Assembly: GCA_964596355.1 (NCBI GenBank)
Contig: CAZQTD010000003.1
Location: 20,500-84,499, forward strand
Length of the DNA stretch: 64,000 nucleotides
Reading direction: 5' to 3'
Source of the DNA: an uncultured Gammaproteobacteria bacterium
GTDB lineage: Bacteria; Patescibacteriota; Microgenomatia; UBA10105; UBA927
How positions within the stretch are numbered: the stretch's first letter is position 1; the number at the start of each line of letters is the position of its first letter. The notes under the pieces were generated by a model. The model was not told the DNA's origin, did not search any database, and worked only from the letters and a program-made list of their open reading frames with translations. The translations under genes were made by a program, and so were the position numbers. Positions 21,025 to 41,183 of the stretch are shown here, piece after piece.

Positions 21025-21053
21025 TTGACACTTCATCATTCCTTCGTTACACT
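21025..21053 (+). promoter_or_regulatory. Promoter TTGACA-17-TACACT for the CBS-domain gene
   Basis: Consensus -35 and good -10. Confidence 0.45.
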
Positions 21054-21068
21054 CGATTGAGGTATTGT

Positions 21069-21542
21069 ATGAAAGTTCACAATGTGATGTCCACAAACAT
21101 TGTTACCGCGTCACCGGATGAGTCTATATGCGAGCTTTGGAAGCACATCATAAAAAGGCGCATCAATGCGGTTCCCGTCATAGATAGACGTCGTCGCCTC
21201 ATTGGTCTTGTGACAAAAGAAGATTTACTCAAAGCGTTATATCCGGATTATCGCGAATATTTGGAGGATGTCACGTCTGCGCACGATTTTGAGCAGATGG
21301 AAGCAAACGTTGGTGATGTGGTGAAATTGAAAGCGAATGACATCATGTGCAAGAAGGTTATCTATACGCTTGGCGACACGCCGCTTATGCGCGCGTTGTC
21401 TCGCATGATTGTGCGGCGCGTCAATCAGTTGCCCGTTATTGATGACGAACATCGCGTCATCGGCATGATAACGAAAAGCGACGTGTTCTCTGCGCTTTTT
21501 CGTTGGCACCTTCGAAAGGCTAAGAAATCGGAGCGCACTTGA
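21069..21542 (+). CDS. CBS domain pair protein
   Basis: Two CBS motifs (VPVIDRRRRLIGLVTKEDLLKAL and LPVIDDEHRVIGMITKSDVFSAL). Confidence 0.75.
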   Translation: MKVHNVMSTNIVTASPDESICELWKHIIKRRINAVPVIDRRRRLIGLVTKEDLLKALYPDYREYLEDVTSAHDFEQMEANVGDVVKLKANDIMCKKVIYTLGDTPLMRALSRMIVRRVNQLPVIDDEHRVIGMITKSDVFSALFRWHLRKAKKSERT

Positions 21543-21567
21543 CAGGAAATTGTCAGATCAGTATACT
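21539..21567 (+). promoter_or_regulatory. Pyrimidine operon promoter TTGACA-17-TATACT
   Basis: Perfect -35 overlapping the CBS gene stop, 17-nt spacer, near-perfect -10. Predicted transcription start near 21574. Confidence 0.55.
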
Positions 21568-21570
21568 AGA

Positions 21571-21608
21571 ATCCCAAGAGTCAGATGAACAGCGGGGATT
21601 TTTTTTAT
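21571..21608 (+). terminator. Hairpin ATCCC-N18-GGGGAT followed by T8; possible terminator for the CBS gene, overlapping the pyr leader
   Basis: Seen directly. Confidence 0.3.
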
Positions 21609-21653
21609 CTATTCAAAAGCATCATTCGCGTATGTGAGCGATGTATGTTCTAA
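21585..21653 (+). CDS. Putative 22-codon pyr leader peptide MNSGDFFYLFKSIIRVCERCMF
   Basis: ATG preceded by AAGAG. The ORF contains a U8 tract and stops at the foot of the attenuator hairpin. Confidence 0.3.
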   Translation: MNSGDFFYLFKSIIRVCERCMF

Positions 21654-21674
21654 GAGCCGATCGGCTCTTTTTTT
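21652..21674 (+). terminator. Candidate attenuator terminator AGAGCC-GATC-GGCTCT + T7, abutting the carA start codon
   Basis: Perfect 16-bp palindrome followed by 7 T residues that end at the carA ATG (21675). Confidence 0.45.
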
Positions 21675-22745
21675 ATGGGTACCAAAGCGTATCTACATTT
21701 TGAAGACGGTGATACGATCGAAGGCGTCAGCTTCGGTTATGAAGGTTCTTGTTCTGGAGAGGTGGTATTTTCGACTGGAATGACCGGGTACTGTGAAAGC
21801 CTGACAGATCCTTCGTTTGCAGGGCAAATTCTTGTATTTACCTATCCACTGATTGGCAACTACGGCGTTGCGCGACCACTTTATCAAGATGCTCACCTGC
21901 TGGCAAATTTTGAGTCGGAAAGAATCTGGGCGTCAGGGGTTATTGTTTCCTCGGTCATCTCAACACCGTCGCATTACCAGCACGAGACATCATTTTCTGA
22001 TTGGCTTACATCGCAAAAGATTCCGGGAATTTCTCATATTGACACACGAGCGCTTACGCAAAAACTTCGCCAGAAGGGCGTCATGCGCGGCAGGATTTTG
22101 ACCACGAAAAATGGCGAATGGGATAACGAGCGTAAAAACCACCTTGTTTCAATGGTAAGTCTGCCCAGAACCATTGTCTATAAACCCCAAAACCCTTGCG
22201 GTATGCGCATCCTTCTCATTGACTGCGGCGTAAAACACGCAATTATTAGAGAGCTTCTTAATAACGGCTATGAAGTTATGCGCATTCCGTGGGATGATGA
22301 TCCTATGAAGTACGCGTCAGCCATTGATGGCGTTGTGTGTTCAAACGGCCCGGGCGACCCAAAAGACTGTCAGATTACGATTGCACATATCCGAAACGTG
22401 ATTAATGCGGGCATTCCCTTTATCGGGGTGTGTTTGGGGCATCAGCTTGCGGCGCTTGCTATTGGCGCGGACACATACAAACTTCCGTACGGTCACCGAG
22501 GATTAAACCAGCCATGTCTCGATGTTTTTTCTCATAAAGCGTATGTCACGAGTCAGAACCACGGCTATGCAGTTAAGCGAGAAACGATCCCGAATGGATA
22601 CAACGAATGGTTTATCAATCTTAATGACAAGACGAATGAGGGGTTGGTAGGTCAGGAACGTAAGGTGTGGAGTACGCAGTTTCATCCGGAAGGGAATCCA
22701 GGCCCATTTGATACAAAATGGATATTTTCGCTGTTCAAAAAATGA
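21675..22745 (+). CDS. carA: Carbamoyl-phosphate synthase small (glutaminase) subunit
   Basis: N-terminus KAYLHFEDGDTIEGVSFGYEGSCSGEVVFSTGMTGYCESLTDPS. GATase Cys GVCLGHQ. Confidence 0.9.
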   Translation: MGTKAYLHFEDGDTIEGVSFGYEGSCSGEVVFSTGMTGYCESLTDPSFAGQILVFTYPLIGNYGVARPLYQDAHLLANFESERIWASGVIVSSVISTPSHYQHETSFSDWLTSQKIPGISHIDTRALTQKLRQKGVMRGRILTTKNGEWDNERKNHLVSMVSLPRTIVYKPQNPCGMRILLIDCGVKHAIIRELLNNGYEVMRIPWDDDPMKYASAIDGVVCSNGPGDPKDCQITIAHIRNVINAGIPFIGVCLGHQLAALAIGADTYKLPYGHRGLNQPCLDVFSHKAYVTSQNHGYAVKRETIPNGYNEWFINLNDKTNEGLVGQERKVWSTQFHPEGNPGPFDTKWIFSLFKK

Positions 22746-25700
22746 AACGCATACAAAAAGTACTCTTATTAGGATCCGGAGCCCTTAAAATCGGTGAAGC
22801 TGGTGAATTTGATTATTCGGGCACACAAGCAATCAAGGCTTTGAAAGAAGAAGGGAAAGAGATCATTTTGATCAATCCGAATATTGCGACCATCCAGACA
22901 TCTGAAGGCCTTGCCGATGAAATATATTTTCTTCCGGTTTCAGCGGATTTCGTTACATCTGTAATTAAAAAAGAACACCCTGATGGCATTCTCCTTGCCT
23001 TTGGAGGACAAACGGCGCTTAACTGCGGAATAGAGCTTTACCGACGCGGCGTTCTGAAGAATTACGAGGTTGCTATTTTGGGCACTCCTATAGAAACGAT
23101 CATAGAGACGGAGGACAGAGAATTATTTTCGAAGCGCTTACACAGTATCGGTTTTAAAACCGCTCGGGGAGCCATTGTCCGAAGTATTCAAGATGGTGTC
23201 GCATTCGCACAAGAACTTGGATTTCCAGTTATGCTTCGGACGGGCTTTGCGCTCGGTGGAACCGGAAGCGGAGTTGCCAAAGATGCAAGAACTCTTAAAA
23301 CGCTGTTAGAAAAAGCATTTGCCACATCGTCTCAAGTTGTGATTGAAGAATGTCTTTACGGATGGAAAGAGATTGAGTATGAAGTTGTACGCGATAAAGA
23401 AGATAACTGCATAACGGTCTGTAATATGGAAAATGTTGACCCCGTAGGCATCCATACTGGTGAATCAATTGTGATTGCGCCGTCTCAAACGCTTACCGAT
23501 GATGAGTATTACGGTCTCCGGCAGATTGCGATTGATGCAATCCGCAAACTTGGAATTATCGGTGAATGCAATATTCAATATGCGCTTGATCCCAAATCAA
23601 ACGACTACAGAATTATTGAAGTAAATGCTCGGCTTTCCAGGTCTTCTGCACTCGCTTCAAAAGCCACGGGATACCCGCTTGCATACATTGCGGCAAAACT
23701 TGCGGTTGGAAGGACACTTCCGGAGTTATCAAATTCTGTAACGAAAAGGACATCAGCGTTTTTTGAGCCGTCGCTTGATTACGTCGTTGTCAAAATTCCG
23801 CGATGGGACTTAGATAAGTATACGCATATTGATCCGAGGATCGGTAGTGAAATGAAAAGCGTCGGTGAAGTGATGAGCATTGCTCGAACATTTAAAGAGG
23901 CTCTGCAGAAAGCGGTGCGTATGCTGAATCAGGGGTATGACGGCGTTGTCGATGAAAAAGAGATGGAGCTCGATATACATTCCATACGGAAACGGCTTAT
24001 CGAGCCGGATGCCAAAAGACTCTTCGTCGTCGCAGCGGCATTCGCAAAGGGCATGACGGTTCAAGACATATACAGCCTAACCGGGATTGATCCGTGGTTT
24101 CTTGCGTCAATTCAACGCATTGTCCAAACATACGCGCGAATTAAAAAAGCAACGGCGGTAACGAGAGAACTCCTGTCTGATGCAAAACGGCAGGGATTTT
24201 CTGATGCTCAAATATCGCGCATTATGAAAATCGATGAGCGTACAATCCGCGCGTCGCGGAAACGTTTTGGTATTGTTCCGGTGGTCAAGCATATCGATAC
24301 GATGGCTGGAGAGTTTCCGGCAAAAACAAATTATCTCTACATGACATACGCCGCTGACTTGAGCGATCACAAACCGTTAGTCAAAGAGAAGAAAGTGATT
24401 GTCCTTGGGAGCGGCCCGTATTCTATCGGAACCTCTGTGGAGTTTGATTGGTGTGCGGTCAATACTGTCAGCAGATTAAAACATCATAGATTTAAAACGG
24501 TCATGATTAACTGTAATCCGGAAACAGTTTCTACAGATTACGATAACACGGATTACTTATATTTTGAGGAATTGACACTAGAGCGGGTACTGGACATTTA
24601 TGATTTGGAGAAATCGCCTTTTATTCTTTCCGTGGGCGGACAGATACCGAACAATCTCGCGCCGAATCTTGATCGTGAGGGAGTGCCGATTCTTGGATCG
24701 GACGCAAAAACCATTCTGAAGGCTGAAGACCGCCAGGTATTCAGCAAACTGTTAGATATGCTGGGTATTCCGCAGCCGGCATGGAGCGAAGCTCATACTG
24801 AAGAACAATCAATCGCGATGGCCAAAACGATCGGTTTTCCCGTTCTTATCCGGCCGTCGTTTGTCCTGTCCGGCAAAGCGATGCTTGTAATTGAAACAGA
24901 AGAGCAGTTGAGACAGTATCTTGCGACGATAGACGTGGACATTAACAAACATGCGCTTGTCATTACCAAATTCCTGCGGGATGCGGTTGAATGTGATTTT
25001 GACGGTGTGGCAAGGCACGGCGACATTGTCGTTTCTGCACTGTCCGAACATGTAGAAAAAGGAGGCGTGCACTCCGGCGACGCGACGCTTGTACTGCCGC
25101 CGCATGGGCTTTCACGCGCCATGAAGCAAACCATCTATGATTACGCGGCGACCATTTCAAAACATCTTGCCATTCACGGGCCGTTTAACATGCAATTTTT
25201 ACTTTCCGACAATCGCGTGTACGTCATTGAGTGCAACCTTCGTGCGTCGCGGAGTATTCCGTTCGTCAGCAAGGCGATGCATACAAACTTCATTACCATG
25301 GCGACAGATATTGCGCTGGGAAAAACTGTCACGAATGTGCGCGGAAAACACCACAATTACGTAGCGGTGAAAGTGCCGCAGTTTTCGTTTCGCAGGCTCC
25401 GCGGCGCTGACCCTGTGCTGCGCGTTGAAATGAGCTCAACCGGTGAGGTAGCGGCGTTTGGAAAAGATATCCATGAAGCATACCTCAAGGCGCTTTTGGC
25501 TACAGGCACCCAGTATCCGAAAAAAAAGGCGGCTTTTTTGAGCTTGGGAGGACAGCGGGCAAAGGAAGAGTTCATTCAATCTGCTGAACGCCTTCGCGAT
25601 ATGGGGTATGTGCTGTATGCGACAAGCGGCACGCATGCTTTTCTCATGGATCATCATATAGAGGTTCTGAAAGTTGAGAAACTTCATGAGGAGGGGCACC

Positions 25701-25954
25701 CGAACTATGCGGATTTGGTAAAGAAGCATATGATTGGGTTTGCAATCGTGTTGCCAGAGCGGTTCTCGGATGCAAGCCGCGCCTCGGTGCAAAAAGGAAT
25801 AACCGACGGGTACCTCATGCGAAGAATGTCGATTGATTTAGGGGTTCCAATTTTTACCAATGCTGAATCTGCTATACTTTACATTGAATCTATTTATCGG
25901 TACAAACAAGAAGATTTAACAATTTTGCCGTGGAGCGAATACAACAGATCGTAG
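22742..25954 (+). CDS. carB: Carbamoyl-phosphate synthase large subunit
   Basis: 1071 aa with duplicated ATP-grasp halves. N-terminus KVLLLGSGALKIGEAGEFDYSGTQA. ATGA overlap with carA. Confidence 0.9.
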   Translation: MKRIQKVLLLGSGALKIGEAGEFDYSGTQAIKALKEEGKEIILINPNIATIQTSEGLADEIYFLPVSADFVTSVIKKEHPDGILLAFGGQTALNCGIELYRRGVLKNYEVAILGTPIETIIETEDRELFSKRLHSIGFKTARGAIVRSIQDGVAFAQELGFPVMLRTGFALGGTGSGVAKDARTLKTLLEKAFATSSQVVIEECLYGWKEIEYEVVRDKEDNCITVCNMENVDPVGIHTGESIVIAPSQTLTDDEYYGLRQIAIDAIRKLGIIGECNIQYALDPKSNDYRIIEVNARLSRSSALASKATGYPLAYIAAKLAVGRTLPELSNSVTKRTSAFFEPSLDYVVVKIPRWDLDKYTHIDPRIGSEMKSVGEVMSIARTFKEALQKAVRMLNQGYDGVVDEKEMELDIHSIRKRLIEPDAKRLFVVAAAFAKGMTVQDIYSLTGIDPWFLASIQRIVQTYARIKKATAVTRELLSDAKRQGFSDAQISRIMKIDERTIRASRKRFGIVPVVKHIDTMAGEFPAKTNYLYMTYAADLSDHKPLVKEKKVIVLGSGPYSIGTSVEFDWCAVNTVSRLKHHRFKTVMINCNPETVSTDYDNTDYLYFEELTLERVLDIYDLEKSPFILSVGGQIPNNLAPNLDREGVPILGSDAKTILKAEDRQVFSKLLDMLGIPQPAWSEAHTEEQSIAMAKTIGFPVLIRPSFVLSGKAMLVIETEEQLRQYLATIDVDINKHALVITKFLRDAVECDFDGVARHGDIVVSALSEHVEKGGVHSGDATLVLPPHGLSRAMKQTIYDYAATISKHLAIHGPFNMQFLLSDNRVYVIECNLRASRSIPFVSKAMHTNFITMATDIALGKTVTNVRGKHHNYVAVKVPQFSFRRLRGADPVLRVEMSSTGEVAAFGKDIHEAYLKALLATGTQYPKKKAAFLSLGGQRAKEEFIQSAERLRDMGYVLYATSGTHAFLMDHHIEVLKVEKLHEEGHPNYADLVKKHMIGFAIVLPERFSDASRASVQKGITDGYLMRRMSIDLGVPIFTNAESAILYIESIYRYKQEDLTILPWSEYNRS

Positions 25955-25970
25955 AAAACGAACGGAGCAC

Positions 25971-26915
25971 ATGAATTACCACACGCTTTACCATCACGAT
26001 ATTTTGACGAGCAGCCAGTTTACGAAAGCTGATGTGGAAGCAATTTTTGCAAAAACGAAACACATGAGGGAATTAGTAAAAACCAAAGGAGGAAACGACA
26101 CGCTCAAAGGCACAATCATGACGGCGTTGTTTTACGAACCGTCAAGCAGAACATTCGGATCATTCGTTGCCGCGATGCAGCGTTTGGGTGGAGGCATCAT
26201 TCCGCTTCAGGGAGTAGTCTATTCGTCGGTCGCCAAGGGGGAGACGCTGGAAGACACGGTAAAGACGTTTGATAATTTTTCTGACGTTATTGTCATCCGC
26301 CATCCGCAGCAGGGGGCCGCAAACATTGCGGCAAACGCTGTCGATGTGCCGGTCATAAATGCAGGCGATGGTCCTGGTGAGCACCCGACGCAGGCTCTTT
26401 TGGATCTTTTTACTATTGCTGACCACTTTCCTTCCATTGACGGACTGACGGTGACGTTTGCCGGAGATTTGCTGTATGGACGAACTGTCCATTCGCTTAC
26501 AACGCTTCTATCCCTTTATGCGCCGGCAGGCATCACCTGCGTATCACCGAGCGAACTACAGATGCCTATTGAATTCGTACAGGCACTTAAGAAAAAGAAT
26601 ATTCCCGTACGGCAAACGGACGAACTGGAGCCAGAGCTTGTCAAAACAGATGTCCTGTATGTTACGCGCGTACAAAGGGAACGATTTCGGGATCTTGATG
26701 TCTATGAAAAATTAAAACACCGCTACATTGTCACGAAAGAGACGATGAACAGGCTTAATAAAAAAGCAATTCTCATGCATCCCTTTCCTAGAGTTGGAGA
26801 AATTGCCACCGATGTGGATAGCGATTCAAGAGCTCTCTACATTAGGGAGCAAATGCGTAATGGATTGTACGTTCGTATGGCGCTTTTATCGTTGGTATTG
26901 CGAAAAGAACCATAG
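25971..26915 (+). CDS. pyrB: Aspartate carbamoyltransferase catalytic subunit
   Basis: Carbamoyl-phosphate binding motif SSRTFGSF and HP..Q region. Confidence 0.85.
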   Translation: MNYHTLYHHDILTSSQFTKADVEAIFAKTKHMRELVKTKGGNDTLKGTIMTALFYEPSSRTFGSFVAAMQRLGGGIIPLQGVVYSSVAKGETLEDTVKTFDNFSDVIVIRHPQQGAANIAANAVDVPVINAGDGPGEHPTQALLDLFTIADHFPSIDGLTVTFAGDLLYGRTVHSLTTLLSLYAPAGITCVSPSELQMPIEFVQALKKKNIPVRQTDELEPELVKTDVLYVTRVQRERFRDLDVYEKLKHRYIVTKETMNRLNKKAILMHPFPRVGEIATDVDSDSRALYIREQMRNGLYVRMALLSLVLRKEP

Positions 26916-26930
26916 AGAATCAGTCGCGAT

Positions 26931-26964
26931 GCTACTACTAATACATCGATGCAATAGTAGTAGC
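26931..26964 (+). repeat. 10-bp inverted repeat GCTACTACTA / TAGTAGTAGC with 14-nt loop in the pyrB-pyrC spacer
   Basis: Seen directly. Flanked by a further GTC/GAC pairing. Confidence 0.3.
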
Positions 26965-26979
26965 GACGGGGGTTGAGTT

Positions 26980-28017
26980 ATGGCGTTAAAGAGATTTCCG
27001 GGGTTTATTGATGTTCATGTTCATTTTCGCGAACCGGGAGCAACGCACAAAGAGGATTTTGCAACAGGCTCGCGGGCGGCAATCACTGGAGGGTTTACGT
27101 ACGTCCTTGATATGCCGAACAATCCTTCAAGACCAACGATTTCCGTTGACCTTCTGGAAGAAAAAGTTGCTTTATCCAAAAGGGCGTTGTGCGATGTGGG
27201 GTTTCATTACGGTACAGATGGAAAAAACGTTGTGTCGTTTCCACGAGCTTGGAAACACCCCCGTGTGTTTGGGGTAAAAGTGTACTGCAGTAATACAACT
27301 GGTGAATTATTGGTGAGCGACCCAATTGTTATAGATCATATTTTTAAAGCTTGGGAATGTTATAAGCCTATCCTTGTTCATGCCGAAGGGGAAAATCTTT
27401 TCCGGTGTTTATCATGTGCCAGCATGTATCAACGTCGCTTGCACGTGTGTCATGTCGCAAAAAGAGAAGATCTCGCGCTTGTCAAACAAGCAAAGGCAAA
27501 AGGGGTTGCCGTGAGCGTAGGAGTAACGCCTCATCACTTATTTCTGACTTCTGACCAAGTGAACAAACTGGGTAACTATGGATTGGTTAAACCAGAAATC
27601 GGAGACATAAACGATCAAGATGCTCTATGGGAAGGATTACAAAGCGGTGTAATAGACATTGTGGAAACAGACCATGCACCTCATACCAAACAAGAGAAAG
27701 AATCGAGGAACCCTCCGTACGGCATGCCGGGACTTGAGACGGCACTTGGGCTCCTTATGAAAGCGTCGCACGAAGGAATGTTGTCTCAAAGCGTTATTAT
27801 CGCCCTTCTTCATGATAATCCAAAAAAGATATTTCATATCCCAGATCAGCTGGGTACTTACATTGAGCTTGATCCAGAAAAGCCGTTTATTATCGGTAAA
27901 GATGGGTATGAGACAAAATGCTGCTGGAGCGTCTTCGAAGGGTGGGAACTTTTCGGGAAAGTTGAGACCGTTGTTATTCGGGGAAGACGACTGGTAAATA
28001 ATTGTACTATGTTATAA
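26980..28017 (+). CDS. pyrC: Dihydroorotase
   Basis: Metal-binding DVHVHFREPG amidohydrolase motif. Position in the pyr operon. Confidence 0.8.
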   Translation: MALKRFPGFIDVHVHFREPGATHKEDFATGSRAAITGGFTYVLDMPNNPSRPTISVDLLEEKVALSKRALCDVGFHYGTDGKNVVSFPRAWKHPRVFGVKVYCSNTTGELLVSDPIVIDHIFKAWECYKPILVHAEGENLFRCLSCASMYQRRLHVCHVAKREDLALVKQAKAKGVAVSVGVTPHHLFLTSDQVNKLGNYGLVKPEIGDINDQDALWEGLQSGVIDIVETDHAPHTKQEKESRNPPYGMPGLETALGLLMKASHEGMLSQSVIIALLHDNPKKIFHIPDQLGTYIELDPEKPFIIGKDGYETKCCWSVFEGWELFGKVETVVIRGRRLVNNCTML

Positions 28018-28028
28018 GAGGAGAAAAT

Positions 28029-28949
28029 ATGGACGATTTGCTTAAGACTTCGTATTGTGGCGTAACATTTCCGAATCCGCTTATTCTCCCTTCAGGTATC
28101 GCGCAGGAGATTCCCAAAGACCACGAGCGGGCGATCGCGGCAGGGGCTGGTGGGATAACGACGAAATCGTTAACCATTGAACCCAGAGAGGGTAGTCCGC
28201 TTCCCCGGGTGGTCAAATATGATCATGGATTCCTCAATTCCGTGGGGCTTCGAGGGCCGGGGTTAGTGAAAGGAAAAGAACTCATCGAAGAATTTCTCAA
28301 ATCGTCGCCGGTGCCGGTTATCGTAAGCGTATTTGCCACAAGTGTGAAGGATTTCGTACGTTTTGCCGAAGAACTCACCCCGCTCAATCCTCCGCTTTTT
28401 GAACTCAACTTGAGTTGCCCCAACGTTGATGATGATATGGGAAAGGCGCTTGGACTTGGCGCAGAATCTTCGGCCGCAGCGGTGAATGCCGTAAAAAAAG
28501 TAGCAGGAAAGGTGCCGGTACTTGCAAAACTCACGCCGAACGTGCCAAACATCGCAGAAGTGGCAAAAGCGTGCGAGCAAGCAGGCGCTGACGGAATTGT
28601 TGCGATCAATACGGCTGGTCCAGGGATGATTATTGATATTGTCAAGCGCAAGCCCGTGCTTGGTAATAAGCGAGGCGGAATATCCGGACCCCCCATTCGT
28701 CCTTTGACGGTTCGCTGTGTGTATGATATTTATGAGGTTGTCAATATCCCCATCATCGGTATGGGCGGAGTTACCACAACGCAGGACGTTATTGAACTGA
28801 TGATGGCAGGAGCGACACTCGTAGGAGTGGGATCTGCAACATACTTGAGGGGCATGAAGGTGTTTGAAGAGATGAAAACCGGCTTGATAGCGTACATGCA
28901 AAAAGAAAGAATCACATCTCTTAAAGAGCTTATTGGTGTGGCGCACTAG
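28029..28949 (+). CDS. pyrD: Dihydroorotate dehydrogenase (class 1 type)
   Basis: N-terminus LKTSYCGVTFPNPLILPSG. SD AGAGGAG. Start set to the ATG at 28029. Confidence 0.85.
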   Translation: MDDLLKTSYCGVTFPNPLILPSGIAQEIPKDHERAIAAGAGGITTKSLTIEPREGSPLPRVVKYDHGFLNSVGLRGPGLVKGKELIEEFLKSSPVPVIVSVFATSVKDFVRFAEELTPLNPPLFELNLSCPNVDDDMGKALGLGAESSAAAVNAVKKVAGKVPVLAKLTPNVPNIAEVAKACEQAGADGIVAINTAGPGMIIDIVKRKPVLGNKRGGISGPPIRPLTVRCVYDIYEVVNIPIIGMGGVTTTQDVIELMMAGATLVGVGSATYLRGMKVFEEMKTGLIAYMQKERITSLKELIGVAH

Positions 28950-29052
28950 TCGCTCGTATTACGTCATTTCCCGGGGTGTGAAGAGTGTGTCGGCTAGCGT
29001 TCGGTATTAGACATATCGAGTTACTTATTGAAAAGATTGTCAGGAGACAGTT

Positions 29053-29895
29053 ATGACGTTTTGCCAGAAGTTGGATGCGATAACCAAAAAGAATGCTTCA
29101 CTTGTGTGCGTGGGTTTAGATAGTGAGTTTAACAAGATCCCCAAGCGCATACGCACCGGTGGTTCGCACCCGCAGGCAACGTTTAACAAGGCGATTATCG
29201 ATGCGACACACGATGTGGTGTGCGCGTATAAACCGAACGCGGCGTTTTATGAAGCGCGCGGGAAAGACGGCATTGAAGATCTTAAAATGACGTGCGACTA
29301 CCTTAAGGTTCATTATCCGGACGTCGTCATCATACTCGATGCCAAACGCGCGGATATCGGTAATACCAATGAAGGTTACGCGGCATTTGCATTTGACTAT
29401 CTGGGTGCCGATGCCATCACTCTCCATCCGTATTTAGGCAAAGAAGCACTCAAACCGTTTTTAGATCGCAAGGACAAAGGCTGCATTATCGTGTGCAGAA
29501 CGTCGAATCTTGGGGCAGAAGAGTTTCAGGACCTAAATGTTCAGGGAGAAAAACCGCTCTACCAGGTGGTTGCAGAAAACGTATCGAAGGAATGGAATTA
29601 CAATGGCAACTGCGGTGTAGCGGTAGGAGCTACCTACCCCACCGAGTTAGAGATTGTGCGACGTATTGTGGGCGAGATGCCGATCCTCATCCCCGGCGTC
29701 GGCGCGCAAGGAGGCGACGTAGAAAAAACCGTTAAAGCCGGTGTTGACAAATCAGGCGCGCGCGCCATCATCAGCTCATCTCGTGGCATCATCTTCGCTT
29801 CTGGCGGAGCCGATTTTGCCCAAAAGGCGCGGGAAGAAACAGAAAAACTTAATAGATACATTAATGAATATAAAATGAAGCGCTATGGCAGATGA
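29053..29895 (+). CDS. pyrF: Orotidine 5'-phosphate decarboxylase (long, type 2)
   Basis: VCVGLDS...ILDAKRADIGNT motifs. 280 aa. Confidence 0.8.
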   Translation: MTFCQKLDAITKKNASLVCVGLDSEFNKIPKRIRTGGSHPQATFNKAIIDATHDVVCAYKPNAAFYEARGKDGIEDLKMTCDYLKVHYPDVVIILDAKRADIGNTNEGYAAFAFDYLGADAITLHPYLGKEALKPFLDRKDKGCIIVCRTSNLGAEEFQDLNVQGEKPLYQVVAENVSKEWNYNGNCGVAVGATYPTELEIVRRIVGEMPILIPGVGAQGGDVEKTVKAGVDKSGARAIISSSRGIIFASGGADFAQKAREETEKLNRYINEYKMKRYGR

Positions 29896-30538
29896 TGTGG
29901 TTTCGATACTAAAAAAGATCGGCGCGGTTTTGACCGATGACCATTTTGTGTATACGTCCGGTAAACACGGGAGCGTCTATATCAACAAGGATTCACTGTA
30001 CCCCCATACAGAGGAAACATCAAACGTCGGCAGAATGTTTGCGGAAAAATTTCAGAATGAAACAATTGATGTGGTTGCAGCTCCAGCCATCGGCGGAACG
30101 ATTCTTTCCCAGTGGACTGCGTATCACCTTTCTAAACTTACGGGGAGAGAAGTACTAAGCGTATATACAGAGAAAGACAAAGGAACACTCGCGTCAGCGG
30201 CAGAAAGCGCGCACATCTTCCGGCGCGGCTACGACAAGCACATTAAGGGAAAACACGTGCTGGTCATCGAGGATCTCACGACGACGGGGATTTCAGTGAA
30301 AAATGTCGTGGCCGCAGTCAGAGCCGCGGGCGGAAAAGTCGTAGCCGTGTGTGTCATGGTCAACCGCGACCCCAAAAACGTCAACAGCGATTCTGTCGGC
30401 GCGCCGTTTTCATCGCTTGGCGTCCTTGAGGCGCAGGCGTTTGATGAGGCCGCGTGCCCGCTTTGCAAAGCCGGCAAGCCGATTAATACCAGCGTCGGCC
30501 ACGGGAAGAAATATCTGGAAGAGAAAGGAAAAGCATGA
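29885..30538 (+). CDS. pyrE: Orotate phosphoribosyltransferase
   Basis: PRTase motif VLVIEDLTTTGIS. Confidence 0.8.
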   Translation: MADDVVSILKKIGAVLTDDHFVYTSGKHGSVYINKDSLYPHTEETSNVGRMFAEKFQNETIDVVAAPAIGGTILSQWTAYHLSKLTGREVLSVYTEKDKGTLASAAESAHIFRRGYDKHIKGKHVLVIEDLTTTGISVKNVVAAVRAAGGKVVAVCVMVNRDPKNVNSDSVGAPFSSLGVLEAQAFDEAACPLCKAGKPINTSVGHGKKYLEEKGKA

Positions 30539-31158
30539 AGTCCGTCACGATTGTCTCTCACCCGCTGGTAGCCCACTCATTAACCGTTCTTCGAGATAAA
30601 ACTACCAAGACGCAGGAATTTCGGCACCACGCCAACATCGTGTCCAAAATTTTGCTTATTGAAGCGACCAAGCATATGGCCATCAAGACGAAATCCATTG
30701 AGACTCCTCTGGCAGCGATGAATGGGGCGCAGCTTAAAGACGACGTCATCGTCGTGCCGGTTCTTCGCGCGGGACTCGCGATGCTTTTTGCTCTTCAGGA
30801 TTTTTTACCGGCAGTTTCTGTGGGATTTATCGGACTTGAGCGTGATGAACAGACGGCGATTGCGCATGAGTACTATAAAAAAATACCGAAGATTTTCACG
30901 ACGCACATCGTCCTTGTCATTGACCCGATGCTCGCTACCGGCGGTTCGCTCGATGACACAATTAAAGCGGTGAAAGAAAAAGGCGCACAACGCATTGTCG
31001 TCGTGTCGATCGTTAGCGCGCCGGAGGGGATCGACCGTTTGGAGCAAAACCATCCAGACGTCCCCATCGTTACCGCGGCAGTCGATGATCACTTGAACGA
31101 CAAAGCCTATATCGTCCCGGGGTTGGGCGACTTCGGCGATCGATATTTTGGCACATAA
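30535..31158 (+). CDS. upp: Uracil phosphoribosyltransferase
   Basis: C-terminal YIVPGLGDFGDRYFGT and central VIDPMLATGGS motifs are diagnostic of Upp rather than PyrR. Confidence 0.85.
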   Translation: MKSVTIVSHPLVAHSLTVLRDKTTKTQEFRHHANIVSKILLIEATKHMAIKTKSIETPLAAMNGAQLKDDVIVVPVLRAGLAMLFALQDFLPAVSVGFIGLERDEQTAIAHEYYKKIPKIFTTHIVLVIDPMLATGGSLDDTIKAVKEKGAQRIVVVSIVSAPEGIDRLEQNHPDVPIVTAAVDDHLNDKAYIVPGLGDFGDRYFGT

Positions 31159-31161
31159 CGC

Positions 31162-32571
31162 ATGCGTTCAACAGACTTTTCATCATACGTTTCTCCGTTT
31201 TCGTGGCGATACGGCAGTAAGGAAATGCGGAGGATTTTTAGCGAGAGGAATAAGTATGCGCTGTGGCGGCGTATCTGGATTGCACTCGCAGAAGCATACC
31301 ACACCGCTGGATTGGTGAAGCTTGACGAGCTCAATGATTTAAAAAAACATGCAGATGACATTGATATAGAAAAAATCCTTGCGCTTGAAAAAGAAACAAA
31401 GCATGATGTGGTAGCGGCAATCCGTGAATTTGCATCAAAAGCGCGTGTGGGCGGCAGAACAATTCACCTTGGCGCTACAAGCGCGGATGTCGTTGACAAC
31501 GCCGATGCGGTGCGCGTAACGCAGGCGCTTGGTCTTATTCAGAATCACCTTGTCCGACTCCTCAAGTCGTTTACAAAACACATTCGAACATACGCCGCCG
31601 TGCCGTGCATGGGGTACACGCATCTACAATTTGCGGAACCCACAACCGTGGGTTACCGTCTGGCGCTGTACGCACAAGATTTGCTGATAGATCTGTCGCT
31701 CCTTGGGTTTGTTACATCGCTTTACAAAGCAAAAGGCATGAAGGGCGCCGTCGGCACACGGGCAAGCTACGCAGAGCTTCTCAAGGGAATATCAATGACG
31801 GCGCAGGAGCTTGATGACGTTGTCGCAAAAAAACTCGATCTTTCGTTTTCACTCATTACAACGCAGGTAGCTCCGCGAAAATTTGACTACCTCGTCATAT
31901 CGCTTCTTGCGAGCATCGCTTCGTCCTTGGCGAAGTTTGCCGGAGACCTGCGGATTCTCCAATCGGCAGGCATTGGCGAATGGAGTGAGCCGTTTGGCGT
32001 TGATCAAGTAGGATCATCAGCCATGCCGTTTAAGAAAAATCCCATTGGCAGTGAAAAGATTTGCTCGCTTGCGCGCTTTGTTGCTGTGCTTCCTCTTGTG
32101 GCGTTGGAGAATGCGTCGATGAGTTATCTGGAGCGGACGCTCGATGACTCGGCAAACAGACGGATTATTATCGCAGAAGCGTGTTTAAGTGTTGACGAGA
32201 TGCTTGGCACTGCCGTAACGATAGTTGAAGGGCTTGTCATTCATGCTGACCGGATCGCGTATAATGTGGCACAATACGCGCCGTTTGCCGCAACAGAAAC
32301 GATACTCATTCACCTGGTGAAACGCGGTGCGCATAGGCAAAAGGCTCACGAGCTTCTTCGACGTATTTCGATGAAGGCGTGGGATGATGTCAAAAAGGGA
32401 AATGCCAATCCAATGGTTCAATTGCTCCGAAAAGACTCGGCAATCCTGAAGTATCTTGCGCCGTCTGAAATTGACAACCTCGTCGATGTAACGCATCACA
32501 TCGGTGACGCACCCATGCGGGCGCGCGCGTTGGGGAAGATAATTGAGCAAAAGATTCGACGGCCCGATTGA
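31162..32571 (+). CDS. purB: Adenylosuccinate lyase
   Basis: N-terminus YVSPFSWRYGSKEMRRIFSE and the fumarate-lyase signature region. 469 aa. Confidence 0.85.
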   Translation: MRSTDFSSYVSPFSWRYGSKEMRRIFSERNKYALWRRIWIALAEAYHTAGLVKLDELNDLKKHADDIDIEKILALEKETKHDVVAAIREFASKARVGGRTIHLGATSADVVDNADAVRVTQALGLIQNHLVRLLKSFTKHIRTYAAVPCMGYTHLQFAEPTTVGYRLALYAQDLLIDLSLLGFVTSLYKAKGMKGAVGTRASYAELLKGISMTAQELDDVVAKKLDLSFSLITTQVAPRKFDYLVISLLASIASSLAKFAGDLRILQSAGIGEWSEPFGVDQVGSSAMPFKKNPIGSEKICSLARFVAVLPLVALENASMSYLERTLDDSANRRIIIAEACLSVDEMLGTAVTIVEGLVIHADRIAYNVAQYAPFAATETILIHLVKRGAHRQKAHELLRRISMKAWDDVKKGNANPMVQLLRKDSAILKYLAPSEIDNLVDVTHHIGDAPMRARALGKIIEQKIRRPD

Positions 32572-32601
32572 CGAACATCGAATAATTTGGTATCTTAGGC
32601 T

Positions 32602-34248
32602 GTGCCACTAAGCAAATATATTTTTGTGTCAGGTGGCGTGATTTCCGGATTGGGAAAGGGCGTCACCACCGCGTCTATTGCGCTTCTCCTCCAGCGTCGA
32701 GGATATACCGTTACCCCGGTTAAGTGTGAAAATTATCTCAACATTGACGCTGGTCTTATAAACCCCATTGAACACGGCGACCCCTTTTTGTGCGAAGATG
32801 GCACAGAAGCAGACATGGATATGGGGACGTATGAGAAGTTTTTGGACAAAAACATGTATCGCCGCAACTTCGTCACGATGGGTCAGATTTACAACGACGT
32901 TATACAGAGGGAACGCAATTTCGGTTACGACGGCGAGGATGTGGAAGCAATTCCTCACGTGACCGATGAAATAATCAAAAAGATCCGCACAGCCGGAGAA
33001 AACGAACAGGCAGACGTGGTTGTCATCGAACTGGGCGGCACGGCTGGTGAATACCAGAACGCGCTCTACTACGAAGCGTCGCGCATCCTTTCTCGAGATA
33101 AAAAAAACCGTGTCGTTCACGTCCACGTGAGCTACCTGCCCATGCCGAGGCACTTGGGCGAACCAAAGACCAAACCAACACAGCTTTCGGTGCGTACGCT
33201 CAATTCGATGGGCATTCAGCCGGATTTCATTGTCACCAGGAGTGAAAAACCCATGGATGAACGGCGGCGCGCCCGATTCGCACTCTTTTGCAATGTGGAA
33301 TCAGATCACGTCATTGACAGTGTTGACGTGCCTAGTCCGTACGAAACGCCCATCCATCTTGCGAAGCAAAAACTCGATGAAAAAATTTTGAATTTACTTG
33401 GTTTGCCGCTTAATAAACCCGACCTATCCGAATGGGTGCAAATGGTTGATACCATTCGTGCGAAGAAAAAGAAACAAAAAACGATTGCTATAGCCGGCAA
33501 ATACTTTGCTACCGGCGAGTATCAACTTCGCGACAGCTATGCTGCGCTCATGGATGCGATTGATCACGCCAGCTGGGCGCAGGGTGTTGATACAGCGGTG
33601 AAATGGATACAGGCGGAACATTTGGAAACAGGCAATGTGGATGACCTTAAAGGTGTTGACGGTATCATCGTGCCGATAGGATGGGGACCTCGGGGCGTGG
33701 AAGGAAAAATTGTCGCAGTAAACTACGCGCGGGAGCGAAAAATTCCGTACTTGGGTCTTTGTTACGGCATGCAGCTTGCAGTTGTGGAGTACGCGCGAAA
33801 CGTGCTTGGATGGACTGACGCCCATACGCTCGAATGCAACCCAAACACAACGCATCCGGTAATTCATATGATTTCCGGTCAAGCAGAAATTTTACAACGC
33901 CGTGCCTACGGCGGCACAATGCGCCTCGGCAGGTGGGAATGCCAAGTGAAGCCCGGCACAATCGCAGATTCGTGTTACATGAAGTACCATGCCTATGACG
34001 ATGAAACAAAGAAAATCGTTGGCGAGCGGCACAGGCATCGCTATGAATTCAATAACACATACGCAGGTGAATTTGAAAAGGCAGGACTTGTGCTTGCCGG
34101 CAGATCGGTGGTTGAACAGTTGGTGGAAATTATCGAATTGCCTACGTCGGTTCACCCGTTTTTCGTTGGCACGCAGTACCATCCGGAGTACAGAAGCAGG
34201 CCGCTTCGACCCCACCCGATATTCCTAAAATTCGTTGCAGCGTTGTAG
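32602..34248 (+). CDS. pyrG: CTP synthase
   Basis: N-terminus KYIFVSGGVISGLGKG. C-terminal GATase domain with GLCYGMQ. Confidence 0.9.
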   Translation: MPLSKYIFVSGGVISGLGKGVTTASIALLLQRRGYTVTPVKCENYLNIDAGLINPIEHGDPFLCEDGTEADMDMGTYEKFLDKNMYRRNFVTMGQIYNDVIQRERNFGYDGEDVEAIPHVTDEIIKKIRTAGENEQADVVVIELGGTAGEYQNALYYEASRILSRDKKNRVVHVHVSYLPMPRHLGEPKTKPTQLSVRTLNSMGIQPDFIVTRSEKPMDERRRARFALFCNVESDHVIDSVDVPSPYETPIHLAKQKLDEKILNLLGLPLNKPDLSEWVQMVDTIRAKKKKQKTIAIAGKYFATGEYQLRDSYAALMDAIDHASWAQGVDTAVKWIQAEHLETGNVDDLKGVDGIIVPIGWGPRGVEGKIVAVNYARERKIPYLGLCYGMQLAVVEYARNVLGWTDAHTLECNPNTTHPVIHMISGQAEILQRRAYGGTMRLGRWECQVKPGTIADSCYMKYHAYDDETKKIVGERHRHRYEFNNTYAGEFEKAGLVLAGRSVVEQLVEIIELPTSVHPFFVGTQYHPEYRSRPLRPHPIFLKFVAAL

Positions 34249-38624: not shown

Positions 38625-41183
38625 TCAGCGCGGGTAATATGCGCGGCGCAATATGCGCTTGCGGATTTCAGAAGCAACGATTAATACCAGCGAGACGGCG
38701 ATGGCCTCATCCAAAAGAAGCCACGGCGGCGACGTAATGCTGAACAACTGTTGCGTGAACGGTATATACATCAAAAGGAGCTGTATAAGTATGACGGCGA
38801 TTGGCAGGAAGATCCATTTGTTTTTTCTGGTTCTTGAGTGCGCAATCGAATGATCGCCAGAGGCAACGTCGAGGTAAATGAACTGTTGAGCAAGAACAAT
38901 GATGAAAAACGCAAGCGTCCTTCCAAGGATAACGTTTTCATGTCGCCAGCCCAGGGAAAACGCGAACAGCGTAACGACGGCAGTCAAAAGGCTTACTTCG
39001 ACAAACCAGCGAATGTCGAAGGCAGTAAAAAGCGCAGAATCGGTTCTGGGCTTTCGCTTCATAATGGATTGGTGCTTGGGATTGACCGCAAGCGCGATAG
39101 CCTGCAGGCTGTCGGTTGCCAGATTCATATACAGAATGTGGATAGGCGCAAGAATAAACGGCCATCCGATTATGGCGCCTCCCACGAGTGCGAAAATTTC
39201 TCCGACATTACATCCCAATAAGTATTTAATTGAGTTTTTCATGTTGTCGTATATTGCTCTGCCTTCTTCAATGGCTTTGACAATTGTGGCGTAATTATCG
39301 TCAGTAACAATCATTTCCGCGGCTTCTTTCGCTACATCAGTGCCGGTTATCCCCATTGCGACCCCAACGTCTGCCTGTTTGAGCGCAAGCGCGTCATTGA
39401 CGCCGTCGCCGGTGACAGCGACGACATTCCCCATTTGTTGAAGAAGCTTGATGATGGCAAGCTTCTGTTCCGGCGTCGTGCGGGCAAACACTCGTACTCT
39501 GGACAGTTTTTCTTTGGCTTCCTCGTCGGTGAGCGTGTCAAACTGTGTTCCTGTGATAACTTCCTCGCCGTGGGAAATGAGATTAATGTGCTTGGCTATG
39601 GCGTAGGCAGTCAGCTCATTATCGCCAGTGATCATGATGGTTTTTATTCCCGCCGCTCGGGCGACGGCTATGGCATCTTTGACCTCTTCTCGCGGGGGAT
39701 CGGCTATGCCAACAAATCCTAAAAACGTCAAATTTGCTTCTGCCTCTGCGCGGTCTTGATGACGAAATGCGTCGTTTTTTGCGGCAAACGCTATCAACCG
39801 CAGGCCGTCTTTTGCGAACGATTCGAATGCGGCGGTGATTTGGGCTGTATAACTCCCATCGAGCGCTCGCTCTTTTCCGTCAATGAGTATCCGGGTTGAT
39901 TTTTTAAGGATTGCCTCCGGCGCGCCCTTGGTATAGACATGCGTGCCAGTTGTGTCTTTCCAGACGACGGACATCGTTTTCGTCGTTGCGTCAAACGCGT
40001 ACTCTTCAAGAAGTGTTCCGTCTCGTTTCGTTGCCGCTATATTAGCACCCGCGTCAACGGCAAACAAAAGGAGAGCTCCTTCTGTTCTGTCGCCTACGAT
40101 GTCATACGTGCCGTGATCGCGGATAGGCGCGAGGCTTGCGTTATTACAAATGAAGGAAACGCGCATAAGTTGCGAAAAGACGTTGTTTTGAAGTGTCAGT
40201 TCTTTGCCGTTGTGCCTGTGCGATGCGCCGTTGAACCATAATTTGACGACGCGCATTTCATTTTTTGTGATCGTGCCCGTTTTATCTGTCGCTATGACGG
40301 TAACCCCGCCAACTGCTTCGATAGCGGCAAGCTTGCGCAAGATTGCTTTTTGGCGAGCCATCCGCTGCGTACCGAGAGCAAGCGTAATGGTGATGACCGC
40401 AGGCAAGCCTTCCGGAACCGCAGCAACCGCCAAGCTAATGCTGGTTAACAGCATTTCGATAATCGGAAGCTGCTTGACGATTCCAATCATAAAAATGGCG
40501 ACTGCAGCTGCCGTTGCCAGAATACCGATTTGTTTGGCGACGATGGCAAGCCGTTTTTCAAGGGGCGTTTCTTCTTTTTCAATGCTCGTGAGGCCTTTGG
40601 CGATAGCACCGAAACGCGTATTCATGCCGGTTGCCGTGATTTTAGCCGTTGCTCTGCCTTTGGCGGCGATTGTTCCCATGAACACCGTCCGTTTCTCCGG
40701 ATTGTCAGCATCTTTTTCAATGGGCATGGATTCGCCTGTTAGGGAGGCCTCGTTTGTTTCAAAGTGAAGGCTGCGAATGATGGTTGCATCGGCAGGGATT
40801 TTATCGCCTTCTTCCAGAAGAATGATATCTCCGGGCACTAGCAGTCTGTTGTCAAGTTCAACCGCGACGCCGTCGCGCACGACTTTGGTGGTGGAAACGG
40901 TCATCTTTTTCAGAGCAGCAAGAGCTTTTTCTGCCCGATACTCCTGAACAAAGCCGAGAATCGCGTTAAGAATAACAATGCAAAAAATGAGTATGCTTTC
41001 AAGCACGTCGCCAAGAACGAGAGAGAGGACAGTAGCAAGAAGCAGAATGATCACTAGCGGGCTTTTGAACTGCTCAACGAACATGCCAACGGGCGTAGCG
41101 TGCGGCGTTTCTACAAGCTCATTGGGGCCGTGCATTTGAAGGAGTTGTGCGGCTTCAGAAGACGTGAGGCCGTGTTGCTTCAT
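38625..41183 (-). CDS. Cation-transporting P-type ATPase (P2-type, Ca2+-ATPase-like)
   Basis: DKTGTIT phosphorylation motif, TGDGVNDALALKQADVGVAMG hinge, 10 predicted transmembrane segments. Confidence 0.8.
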   Translation of the reverse strand: MKQHGLTSSEAAQLLQMHGPNELVETPHATPVGMFVEQFKSPLVIILLLATVLSLVLGDVLESILIFCIVILNAILGFVQEYRAEKALAALKKMTVSTTKVVRDGVAVELDNRLLVPGDIILLEEGDKIPADATIIRSLHFETNEASLTGESMPIEKDADNPEKRTVFMGTIAAKGRATAKITATGMNTRFGAIAKGLTSIEKEETPLEKRLAIVAKQIGILATAAAVAIFMIGIVKQLPIIEMLLTSISLAVAAVPEGLPAVITITLALGTQRMARQKAILRKLAAIEAVGGVTVIATDKTGTITKNEMRVVKLWFNGASHRHNGKELTLQNNVFSQLMRVSFICNNASLAPIRDHGTYDIVGDRTEGALLLFAVDAGANIAATKRDGTLLEEYAFDATTKTMSVVWKDTTGTHVYTKGAPEAILKKSTRILIDGKERALDGSYTAQITAAFESFAKDGLRLIAFAAKNDAFRHQDRAEAEANLTFLGFVGIADPPREEVKDAIAVARAAGIKTIMITGDNELTAYAIAKHINLISHGEEVITGTQFDTLTDEEAKEKLSRVRVFARTTPEQKLAIIKLLQQMGNVVAVTGDGVNDALALKQADVGVAMGITGTDVAKEAAEMIVTDDNYATIVKAIEEGRAIYDNMKNSIKYLLGCNVGEIFALVGGAIIGWPFILAPIHILYMNLATDSLQAIALAVNPKHQSIMKRKPRTDSALFTAFDIRWFVEVSLLTAVVTLFAFSLGWRHENVILGRTLAFFIIVLAQQFIYLDVASGDHSIAHSRTRKNKWIFLPIAVILIQLLLMYIPFTQQLFSITSPPWLLLDEAIAVSLVLIVASEIRKRILRRAYYPR

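Follow-up and report, generated by a model that had tools for sequence, protein, structure and literature searches.

The stretch of DNA considered here is a 64,000-nucleotide (64 kb) part of contig CAZQTD010000003.1 (assembly GCA_964596355.1), called the window in the following, and the element in question is the short leader in front of its pyrimidine operon. According to NCBIfam assignments this operon comprises carA, carB, pyrB, pyrC, pyrD, pyrF, pyrE, upp and purB and is followed by pyrG (start at 32602), in front of which a separate promoter-like site is found at 32568-32596. The identity of CarA, encoded from an ATG at 21675, is backed by TIGR01368 with 402 bits. On its 5' side carA is preceded by ATP synthase genes and by a gene for a stand-alone CBS-pair protein (21057-21542). 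The features between the CBS-domain gene and the end of the operon are collected in Table 1.

Table 1. Features of the carA leader and of the operon behind it, in window coordinates
Feature	Position	Strand	Description
Sigma-70-type promoter	21539..21567	+	TTGACA 21539-21544, 17-nt spacer, TATACT 21562-21567
Dyad TGACA-N6-TGTCA, candidate operator	21540..21555	.	Overlaps -35 box and spacer
Upstream hairpin	21568..21602	+	AGAAUCCC / GGGAUUUU; 19-nt loop with leader AUG; predicted fold
Leader open reading frame	21585..21653	+	22 codons, MNSGDFFYLFKSIIRVCERCMF + TAA; sequence as read
U8 run	21599..21606	+	Codons 5-8 of the leader frame; candidate UTP-sensitive pause site
Intrinsic terminator	21652..21674	+	Stem AAGAGCC/GGCUCUU, loop GAUC, U tail up to carA ATG
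Controlled genes carA to purB	21675..32571	+	NCBIfam assignments

The carA promoter agrees with the consensus at 11 of 12 positions and is the top promoter-like site of the 18 kb scanned. The original prediction had described it as a consensus promoter (TTGACA-17-TATACT) overlapping the stop of the CBS gene, which is how it is found, the TGA (21540-21542) lying within the -35 hexamer. From the usual spacing, transcription is predicted to start near 21574-21576. The transcript would then carry a Shine-Dalgarno (SD)-like AAGAG at 21576-21580 and a short open reading frame (ORF) containing a U8 run; these three elements, too, lie where they had been placed by the prediction. The TAA of the leader ORF occupies 21651-21653, and the terminator stem begins with two of these stop bases. 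The U8 run is one of two runs of at least eight T on the plus strand of the 64 kb, and the leader is moderately T-rich, with a T content of 33% (88th percentile).

The leader ends in a terminator hairpin. The palindrome AGAGCCGATCGGCTCT is located at 21653-21668 and the RNA is predicted to fold into a 7-bp stem, AAGAGCC-GAUC-GGCUCUU (21652-21669), with -10.1 kcal/mol and z = -3.5, and none of 200 shuffled sequences folds as well. A 16-bp palindrome followed by U7 up to the carA ATG had been proposed; the palindrome is present as proposed, and the T7 run (21668-21674) does not follow it entirely and shares its first base with it, leaving six Ts after the palindrome and five unpaired after the 7-bp stem. 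A simple terminator scan returned 20 sites compared to 19.7 expected from shuffled sequence and by itself proves nothing, since the count is the same as in shuffled sequence. In a stricter scan of both strands, which asked for a perfect stem with at least three GC pairs and at least six T in the tail, the hairpin of the carA leader was the only strong intergenic match in the window. Evidently, this genome does not scatter such terminators, yet its best one sits in a 5' leader. Its place, behind the promoter and ahead of the first structural gene, is the one that characterises attenuators of the pyrE/pyrBI type. The interval from terminator to ATG is too short to hold a promoter, so that carA must be reached by read-through. 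A leaderless carA promoter inside the leader was also considered and was rejected, as no -10-like hexamer precedes 21675.

Folding of the leaders of the window and of three relatives introduced below (L004, L087 and L005) up to the terminator loop predicted no antiterminator helix, and the 5' arm of the terminator remained unpaired before the 3' arm is made. One candidate antiterminator, formed by the 5' AAGAGYC (21576-82) with the 3' arm of the terminator, was rejected because it has no equivalent in L087 or L005 and is uncompetitive with the tetraloop hairpin; a U-to-C change in L004 improves this pairing. No Rfam family matched the window at its gathering score, the best being rimP with 21 bits compared to a gathering score of 47, and the PyrR site (RF00515) gave no match in 21400-21800 even at E<=10. 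Because there is neither an antiterminator fold nor an Rfam or PyrR match, the remaining block to termination would be a steric one, exerted by a ribosome.

For a comparison, the upstream DNA was fetched for about a dozen relatives and for 97 loci overall, and a metagenome scan with the clade alignment was used for distant comparison, the matches listed being loci at 45-58% identity. The order of promoter, AUG, hairpin, T-run and ATG is kept in four lineages, which are the window and the loci L004, L005 and L087, whose CarA is identical to that of the window by 79, 73 and 71%, respectively. Across these four, the promoter pattern CTTGACAG..A..TGTCAG.T..GTA.ACTA is invariant, as is the leader start ATGA, which follows the -10 box by 17-19 nt. 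L004 has the same promoter, leader start and U8 run, an in-frame ORF of equal length (22 codons, MNTGDFFYRIRNNCIICLCRIF) and a terminator with a different loop; in L087 and L005 the terminator ends in T6-7 and then ATG. The T content of the leader is 41% in L004 and 28% in L087. The ORF is placed such that a ribosome on it would cover the 5' arm of the hairpin, as its stop overlaps the stem in the window and in L004, and it runs through the terminator in L005.

Conservation between the window and L004 is distributed in blocks. From the -35 box to U8-AUC, 66 of 71 positions (93%) are identical, followed by 41 nt with 19 identities (46%) in which no indel is found and the leader frame is open in both, and by the stop, terminator and ATG with 25/27 identities (93%), both differences being in the loop. 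The third codon positions of carA are identical at 153/357, and since the identity of the 41-nt spacer equals that value, the spacer is effectively neutral. The leader peptide is unconserved past its first eight residues in L004 and unrelated in L087 and L005. This distribution indicates purifying selection on promoter, leader AUG and terminator, with selection acting on the promoter, the initiation region with U8, the terminator and the spacing or frame, and not on the peptide sequence. Such a pattern would be expected for a leader ORF that serves solely to bring a ribosome to the hairpin.

The terminator stem itself has evolved by paired changes. In L005 it reads AAGGCCC/GGGCCUU, which compared to AAGAGCC/GGCUCUU amounts to two compensatory pair changes, read directly from the sequences, and its loop is one base longer. 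The loops differ in all four terminators and the T-run is always kept. Furthermore, the upstream neighbour genes of L005 are divergent, and its terminator is therefore not serving an upstream gene. The original prediction had named conservation of the small ORF, its U-tract and the terminator as a check; the terminator and the position of the AUG are conserved, and the U8 run is shared with L004 alone.

We hold with moderate confidence that the 5' leader of the carA-carB-pyrBCDFE-upp-purB operon is an attenuator gated by the ribosome, with uridine triphosphate (UTP) as the most likely signal. RNA polymerase would start near 21574 and make a leader of about 100 nt, the hairpin at 21652-21674, which ends at the carA start codon, would form by default and most transcripts would stop there. 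The leader start codon would be found 11 nt from the 5' end, opening a frame of 22 codons whose UAA extends into the hairpin foot. A ribosome close behind the polymerase would reach this stop and cover the 5' arm, no hairpin would form and transcription would enter carA, so that the gate would be the ribosome itself and not an alternative RNA fold. If UTP is scarce, the polymerase would linger in the U8 run after the leader start and the ribosome would gain time to load and to stay coupled. Leader translation, blocking of the hairpin by the ribosome and the UTP signal are what we infer here; for translation, the invariant AUG position and the frame and length kept across the neutral spacer are indirect evidence. 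UTP sensing by the leader is plausible but weakly supported, and UTP as the signal is the weakest link of the scheme, being derived from the type of operon and the U8 run kept in L004. The idea of a promoter-proximal attenuator of the pyr operon, put forward by the original prediction, is supported by the conserved promoter, AUG and terminator, by the compensatory changes in the stem, by the lack of an antiterminator and by the layout, which resembles that in E. coli.

Several observations weigh against this scheme. The transcription start at carA is predicted from the sequence. In shuffled leaders an ATG-initiated ORF of at least five codons reaches the terminator in 33-55% of trials, which makes the leader ORF by itself weak evidence. 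The U8 run, identical in L004, is missing from both L087 and L005, and in L087 no U-rich stretch is found from the AUG to the stem. Furthermore, U8 starts 15 nt past the AUG, and a polymerase paused there would barely expose the start codon, unlike in pyrBI with its pause well downstream. The 5'-proximal ORF of L087 stops 12 nt before the stem, which is crossed solely by an ORF beginning at its foot. Finally, several equally close relatives with about 70% CarA identity (L091-93, L094, L095 and L096) lack the leader: in L091-93 the same promoter is followed by carA after an 11-nt spacer, in L094 and L096 carA is fused to the upstream gene, and L086 and L095 are arranged differently again. As these relatives do without the leader, the attenuator is clade-restricted and dispensable. 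A leader sensing amino acids was rejected as well, since no regulatory codon run is common to the peptides, whose abundance of Phe, Ile, Tyr and Cys reflects the U-rich RNA.

Some more distant carA loci (45-52% identity, GC about 35%) show the stop of a short ORF within the foot of a terminator or immediately ahead of it. The terminators of these loci are located 13-19 nt before carA, i.e., in L030 (1395-1470, equal to L032), L049 (1419-1480), L077 (1427-1475) and L050 (551-600). L030 has the identical stem AAGAGCC/GGCUCUU and additionally an extra hairpin with U8 upstream. The upstream gene is divergent in L049 and L050, and L050 has a clear promoter. Counted over the 11 independent loci whose terminator is no more than 40 nt away from carA, an ORF stop at -3 to 0 of the stem foot occurs in four (the window, L030/32, L049 and L077) compared to an expectation of 0.6 (P about 0.002); since this criterion was picked after seeing the data, which also limits what the count can add to the attenuator, the enrichment is a lead and not a test. 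It is a tentative suggestion that leader ORFs with their stop in the hairpin foot are a recurrent and possibly independently evolved form of pyrimidine control in small-genome Patescibacteria-like bacteria, which in this clade would be combined with a dedicated repressor site, TGACA-N6-TGTCA.

This dyad is the basis of the alternative that survives best. It occurs exactly once in the window, it is invariant in the four lineages (L004 2221-2236, L005 2370-2385 and L087 1355-1370 in addition to the window) and it is partly retained in L091-93 (L091 1461-1476), which lack the leader and have a CarA of about 70% identity. Among the 97 fetched loci the motif TTGACAG-N5-TGTC was found only upstream of carA, namely in L004, L005, L087 and L091-93. 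Its position over the -35 box suggests an additional layer of repression at a candidate operator, which could be the main control. In that case a repressor bound to the dyad would govern the operon, the terminator would be a constitutive damper or an insulator against read-through from the strongly expressed atp/CBS genes and the ORF would be incidental, in agreement with an ORF that is statistically undistinctive and with relatives that manage without a leader. However, an insulator is expected upstream of the promoter and not downstream, and in L005 with its divergent neighbours there is nothing to insulate. The kept AUG position, spacer length and frame are left unexplained, and no candidate regulator gene was seen beside the operon. 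We regard it as rather unlikely that the repressor is the main control; repressor and ribosome-gated attenuator are not exclusive.

A second alternative places the control in the conserved 5' part of the leader (21568-21609), on which an RNA-binding protein acting in trans, PyrR-like or other, or a riboswitch would act. This part is 93% identical to L004 and is followed by the neutral 41 nt, a hairpin with the AUG in its loop can be drawn, and PyrR-type attenuation is common in many Gram-positive bacteria. Against this stand the lack of any Rfam match, RF00515 included, even at E<=10, and the lack of a predicted antiterminator or anti-antiterminator. No pyrR was found among the ten genes from carA to pyrG, all of which were assigned, or in the region of the window examined, and Upp is a phosphoribosyltransferase of 207 aa encoded after pyrE that scores 250 bits with TIGR01091 at a cut-off of 208, in agreement with the prediction, which had noted that pyrR is missing in the window and that Upp is clearly Upp. 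Moreover, the 5' leader sequence is not common to L087 or L005, and the sequence from the AUG to the terminator is unconserved. The hairpin (-8.9 kcal/mol, z = -2.0; -7.1 kcal/mol for the equivalent fold of L004) has a 5' arm that is mostly upstream of the predicted start, for which reason it is possible only in read-through RNA from the atp/CBS genes. We consider regulation of this kind improbable. The remainder of the U8 run comes after this hairpin (21568-21606), which may be a weak terminator for the atp/CBS unit overlapping the carA promoter and the leader start.

It is still less probable that the leader is a small gene of its own, either for a peptide of 22 residues or for a small RNA with a length of about 100 nt, with carA being expressed from leak-through. 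Promoter, ORF and terminator do form a complete unit, and according to one report a small RNA from the carA 5' untranslated region was proposed in Pseudomonas syringae (PMC4997734). However, the peptide is unconserved after eight residues even in L004 and unrelated in L087 and L005, carA is next to the unit in every case, and carA has no other promoter. The suggestion made at the outset that the 16-bp palindrome is an operator bound by a protein as DNA is contradicted and highly improbable, since AGAGCCGATCGGCTCT, while a perfect dyad, is represented in the relatives by kept pairing and not by kept sequence, with two compensatory changes in L005, a dyad centre (the loop) that varies freely, even in length, and T6-7 always on one side only, all of which identifies a hairpin terminator and not a half-site operator.

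The original prediction had further proposed, from the missing SD of carA, that carA initiation is translationally coupled to termination of the leader peptide. This argument fails, because SD sites are rare in the window and because relatives separate the terminator from the carA ATG. An SD-like 4-mer precedes only about 10 of the 54 ORF starts in the window, many genes look leaderless and in several a -10-like hexamer precedes the ATG by 6-8 nt, such as TACAATgatactATG and TACACTatccttcATG. Examples are the gene starts at 41183(-), 42716(-) and 38574(-). This suggests widespread leaderless or SD-independent initiation in the host; a literature search on SD or leaderless usage in Patescibacteria found nothing relevant. 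In L087 the carA ATG is located 12 nt beyond the conserved U7-AUG, and in both L004 and L097 terminator and carA ATG are kept apart by an inverted-repeat element about 150 nt long. A hairpin 5 nt before the carA AUG would hinder fresh initiation, and help by the ribosome of the leader is conceivable, without support from conservation.

The inverted-repeat element of L004 (2357-2500) has 20-bp terminal inverted repeats, CCAGGTAGTAGAATTTCGAC ... GTCGAAATTTCACTACCTGG, and TATG at both ends. It is predicted to fold with -46.6 kcal/mol (z = -5.8) and has no Rfam match. In L097, of which 38 nt of upstream DNA are covered, positions 1-38 are the 3' end of the L004 element, and its CarA is 77% identical to that of L004. 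The element is either old or mobile, resembling miniature inverted-repeat transposable elements.

The nearest named relatives of CarA are Patescibacteria, i.e., Gottesmanbacteria, Beckwithbacteria and entries named "Patescibacteria group", which suggests, judged from this one protein, a Patescibacteria-like host. In a scan of genome contigs with CarA the only matches were from Bacteriovoracaceae with 33-36% identity. The protein with two CBS domains, of about 160 aa, stays between atpC and carA in most relatives (L086, L087, L091, L096 and L006), and in the window its gene has a promoter-like TTGACA-17-TACACT at 21025-21053, 3 nt ahead of the TTG listed as its start. CBS pairs bind adenosyl or nucleotide ligands, and a link of this protein to nucleotide or energy sensing is possible. 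The dihydroorotase ORF (26980-28017) encodes 345 aa, its profile alignment begins at about position 45-53, and with 243 bits it is below the TIGR00857 cut-off of 279. The dihydroorotase of relatives is likewise short (323 aa in L088), and it may be an N-terminally reduced PyrC form of the clade or have a mis-set start.

To our knowledge, gene regulation in Patescibacteria (Candidate Phyla Radiation) is almost unstudied, these bacteria being uncultured and having few recognisable regulators, and we know of no leader-ORF attenuation described in this phylum. As judged here, Patescibacteria-like bacteria have small genomes poor in SD sites and intrinsic terminators. For a specialist the attenuator is unsurprising; it is of moderate interest as a clean element in a group with almost no known regulation. 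If leader ORFs of this kind are indeed a recurrent form of control, they would be the first evidence of regulatory transcription-translation coupling in this phylum. The ribosome-gated attenuator, a compact element of 140 nt, would imply that these organisms sense their own nucleotide supply and that their ribosomes track the polymerase closely enough to gate termination. With it the pyrE/pyrBI logic would be represented in a third lineage that is phylogenetically distant, suggesting that this logic evolves easily wherever PyrR is absent.

Among known systems, the PyrR-controlled operons of Bacillus and relatives likewise have a promoter-proximal terminator before a long pyr operon that includes carA/carB (pyrAA/AB). 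They differ from the window in the PyrR-binding RNA motif, the pyrR gene in the operon and the pair of antiterminator and anti-antiterminator, none of which is found here. The carAB operon of Pseudomonas aeruginosa shares its first gene, carA, with the operon of the window. It carries no pyr genes and is also controlled by arginine via ArgR, unlike the operon described here. A leader peptide and attenuation by pyrimidines were reported for it, as cited in PMC4997734.

The E. coli pyrBI leader is similar with respect to its dedicated promoter, short leader ORF and terminator just before the first structural gene; it is U-rich, and that of the window is moderately T-rich. Its leader ORF, pyrL, has 44 codons and runs through the terminator to a stop 3 nt short of the pyrB ATG, as opposed to an ORF that stops at the stem foot in the window, and it is the L005 ORF that runs through the terminator like pyrL. 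In pyrBI a pause hairpin and a U-rich tract precede the terminator by about 20 nt, whereas the U8 run of the window follows the AUG at a distance of 15 nt, with 45 nt remaining up to the stem. Reiterative transcription at the AATTTG start of pyrBI has no counterpart in the window, where the predicted initial transcript, CCAAGAG, has no run of at least three T at +2 to +4 or beyond. At the pyrBI, carAB P1, upp and codBA promoters of E. coli, T-runs at the start site serve reiterative transcription that is sensitive to UTP. A T5-T6 run is found at the predicted start of L087 (1381-1395, TAGACTagaTTTTTaatg) and of L050 (about 538-552, TACTATtgTTTTTTagg).

The rph-pyrE attenuator was read from E. 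coli MG1655 as the TGA of wild-type rph, 5 nt, the 8-bp hairpin AAGGCGAC-UGAUGA-GUCGCCUU and U8. In both rph-pyrE and the window an ORF ends at the 5' foot of a terminator before a pyrimidine gene, the hairpin of about 7-8 bp is followed by a long U run and an antiterminator helix is lacking. In rph-pyrE, 5 nt separate the TGA from the stem, whereas in the window the TAA overlaps the stem by 2 nt, and the ORF is a full gene, rph, in E. coli, compared to a dedicated 22-codon leader with its own promoter. E. coli pyrE starts about 40 nt past the terminator and has an SD; carA has none and its ATG is 5 nt past the stem, and the controlled gene set and the phylum are different. For the E. coli and Salmonella rph-pyrE attenuator the dependence on UTP is proven, whereas for the window it is a proposal. 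Judged by this anatomy, the window and L004 resemble pyrE best and L005 resembles pyrBI, and the carA attenuator is probably a new example, in this phylum, of the known pyrE/pyrBI kind.

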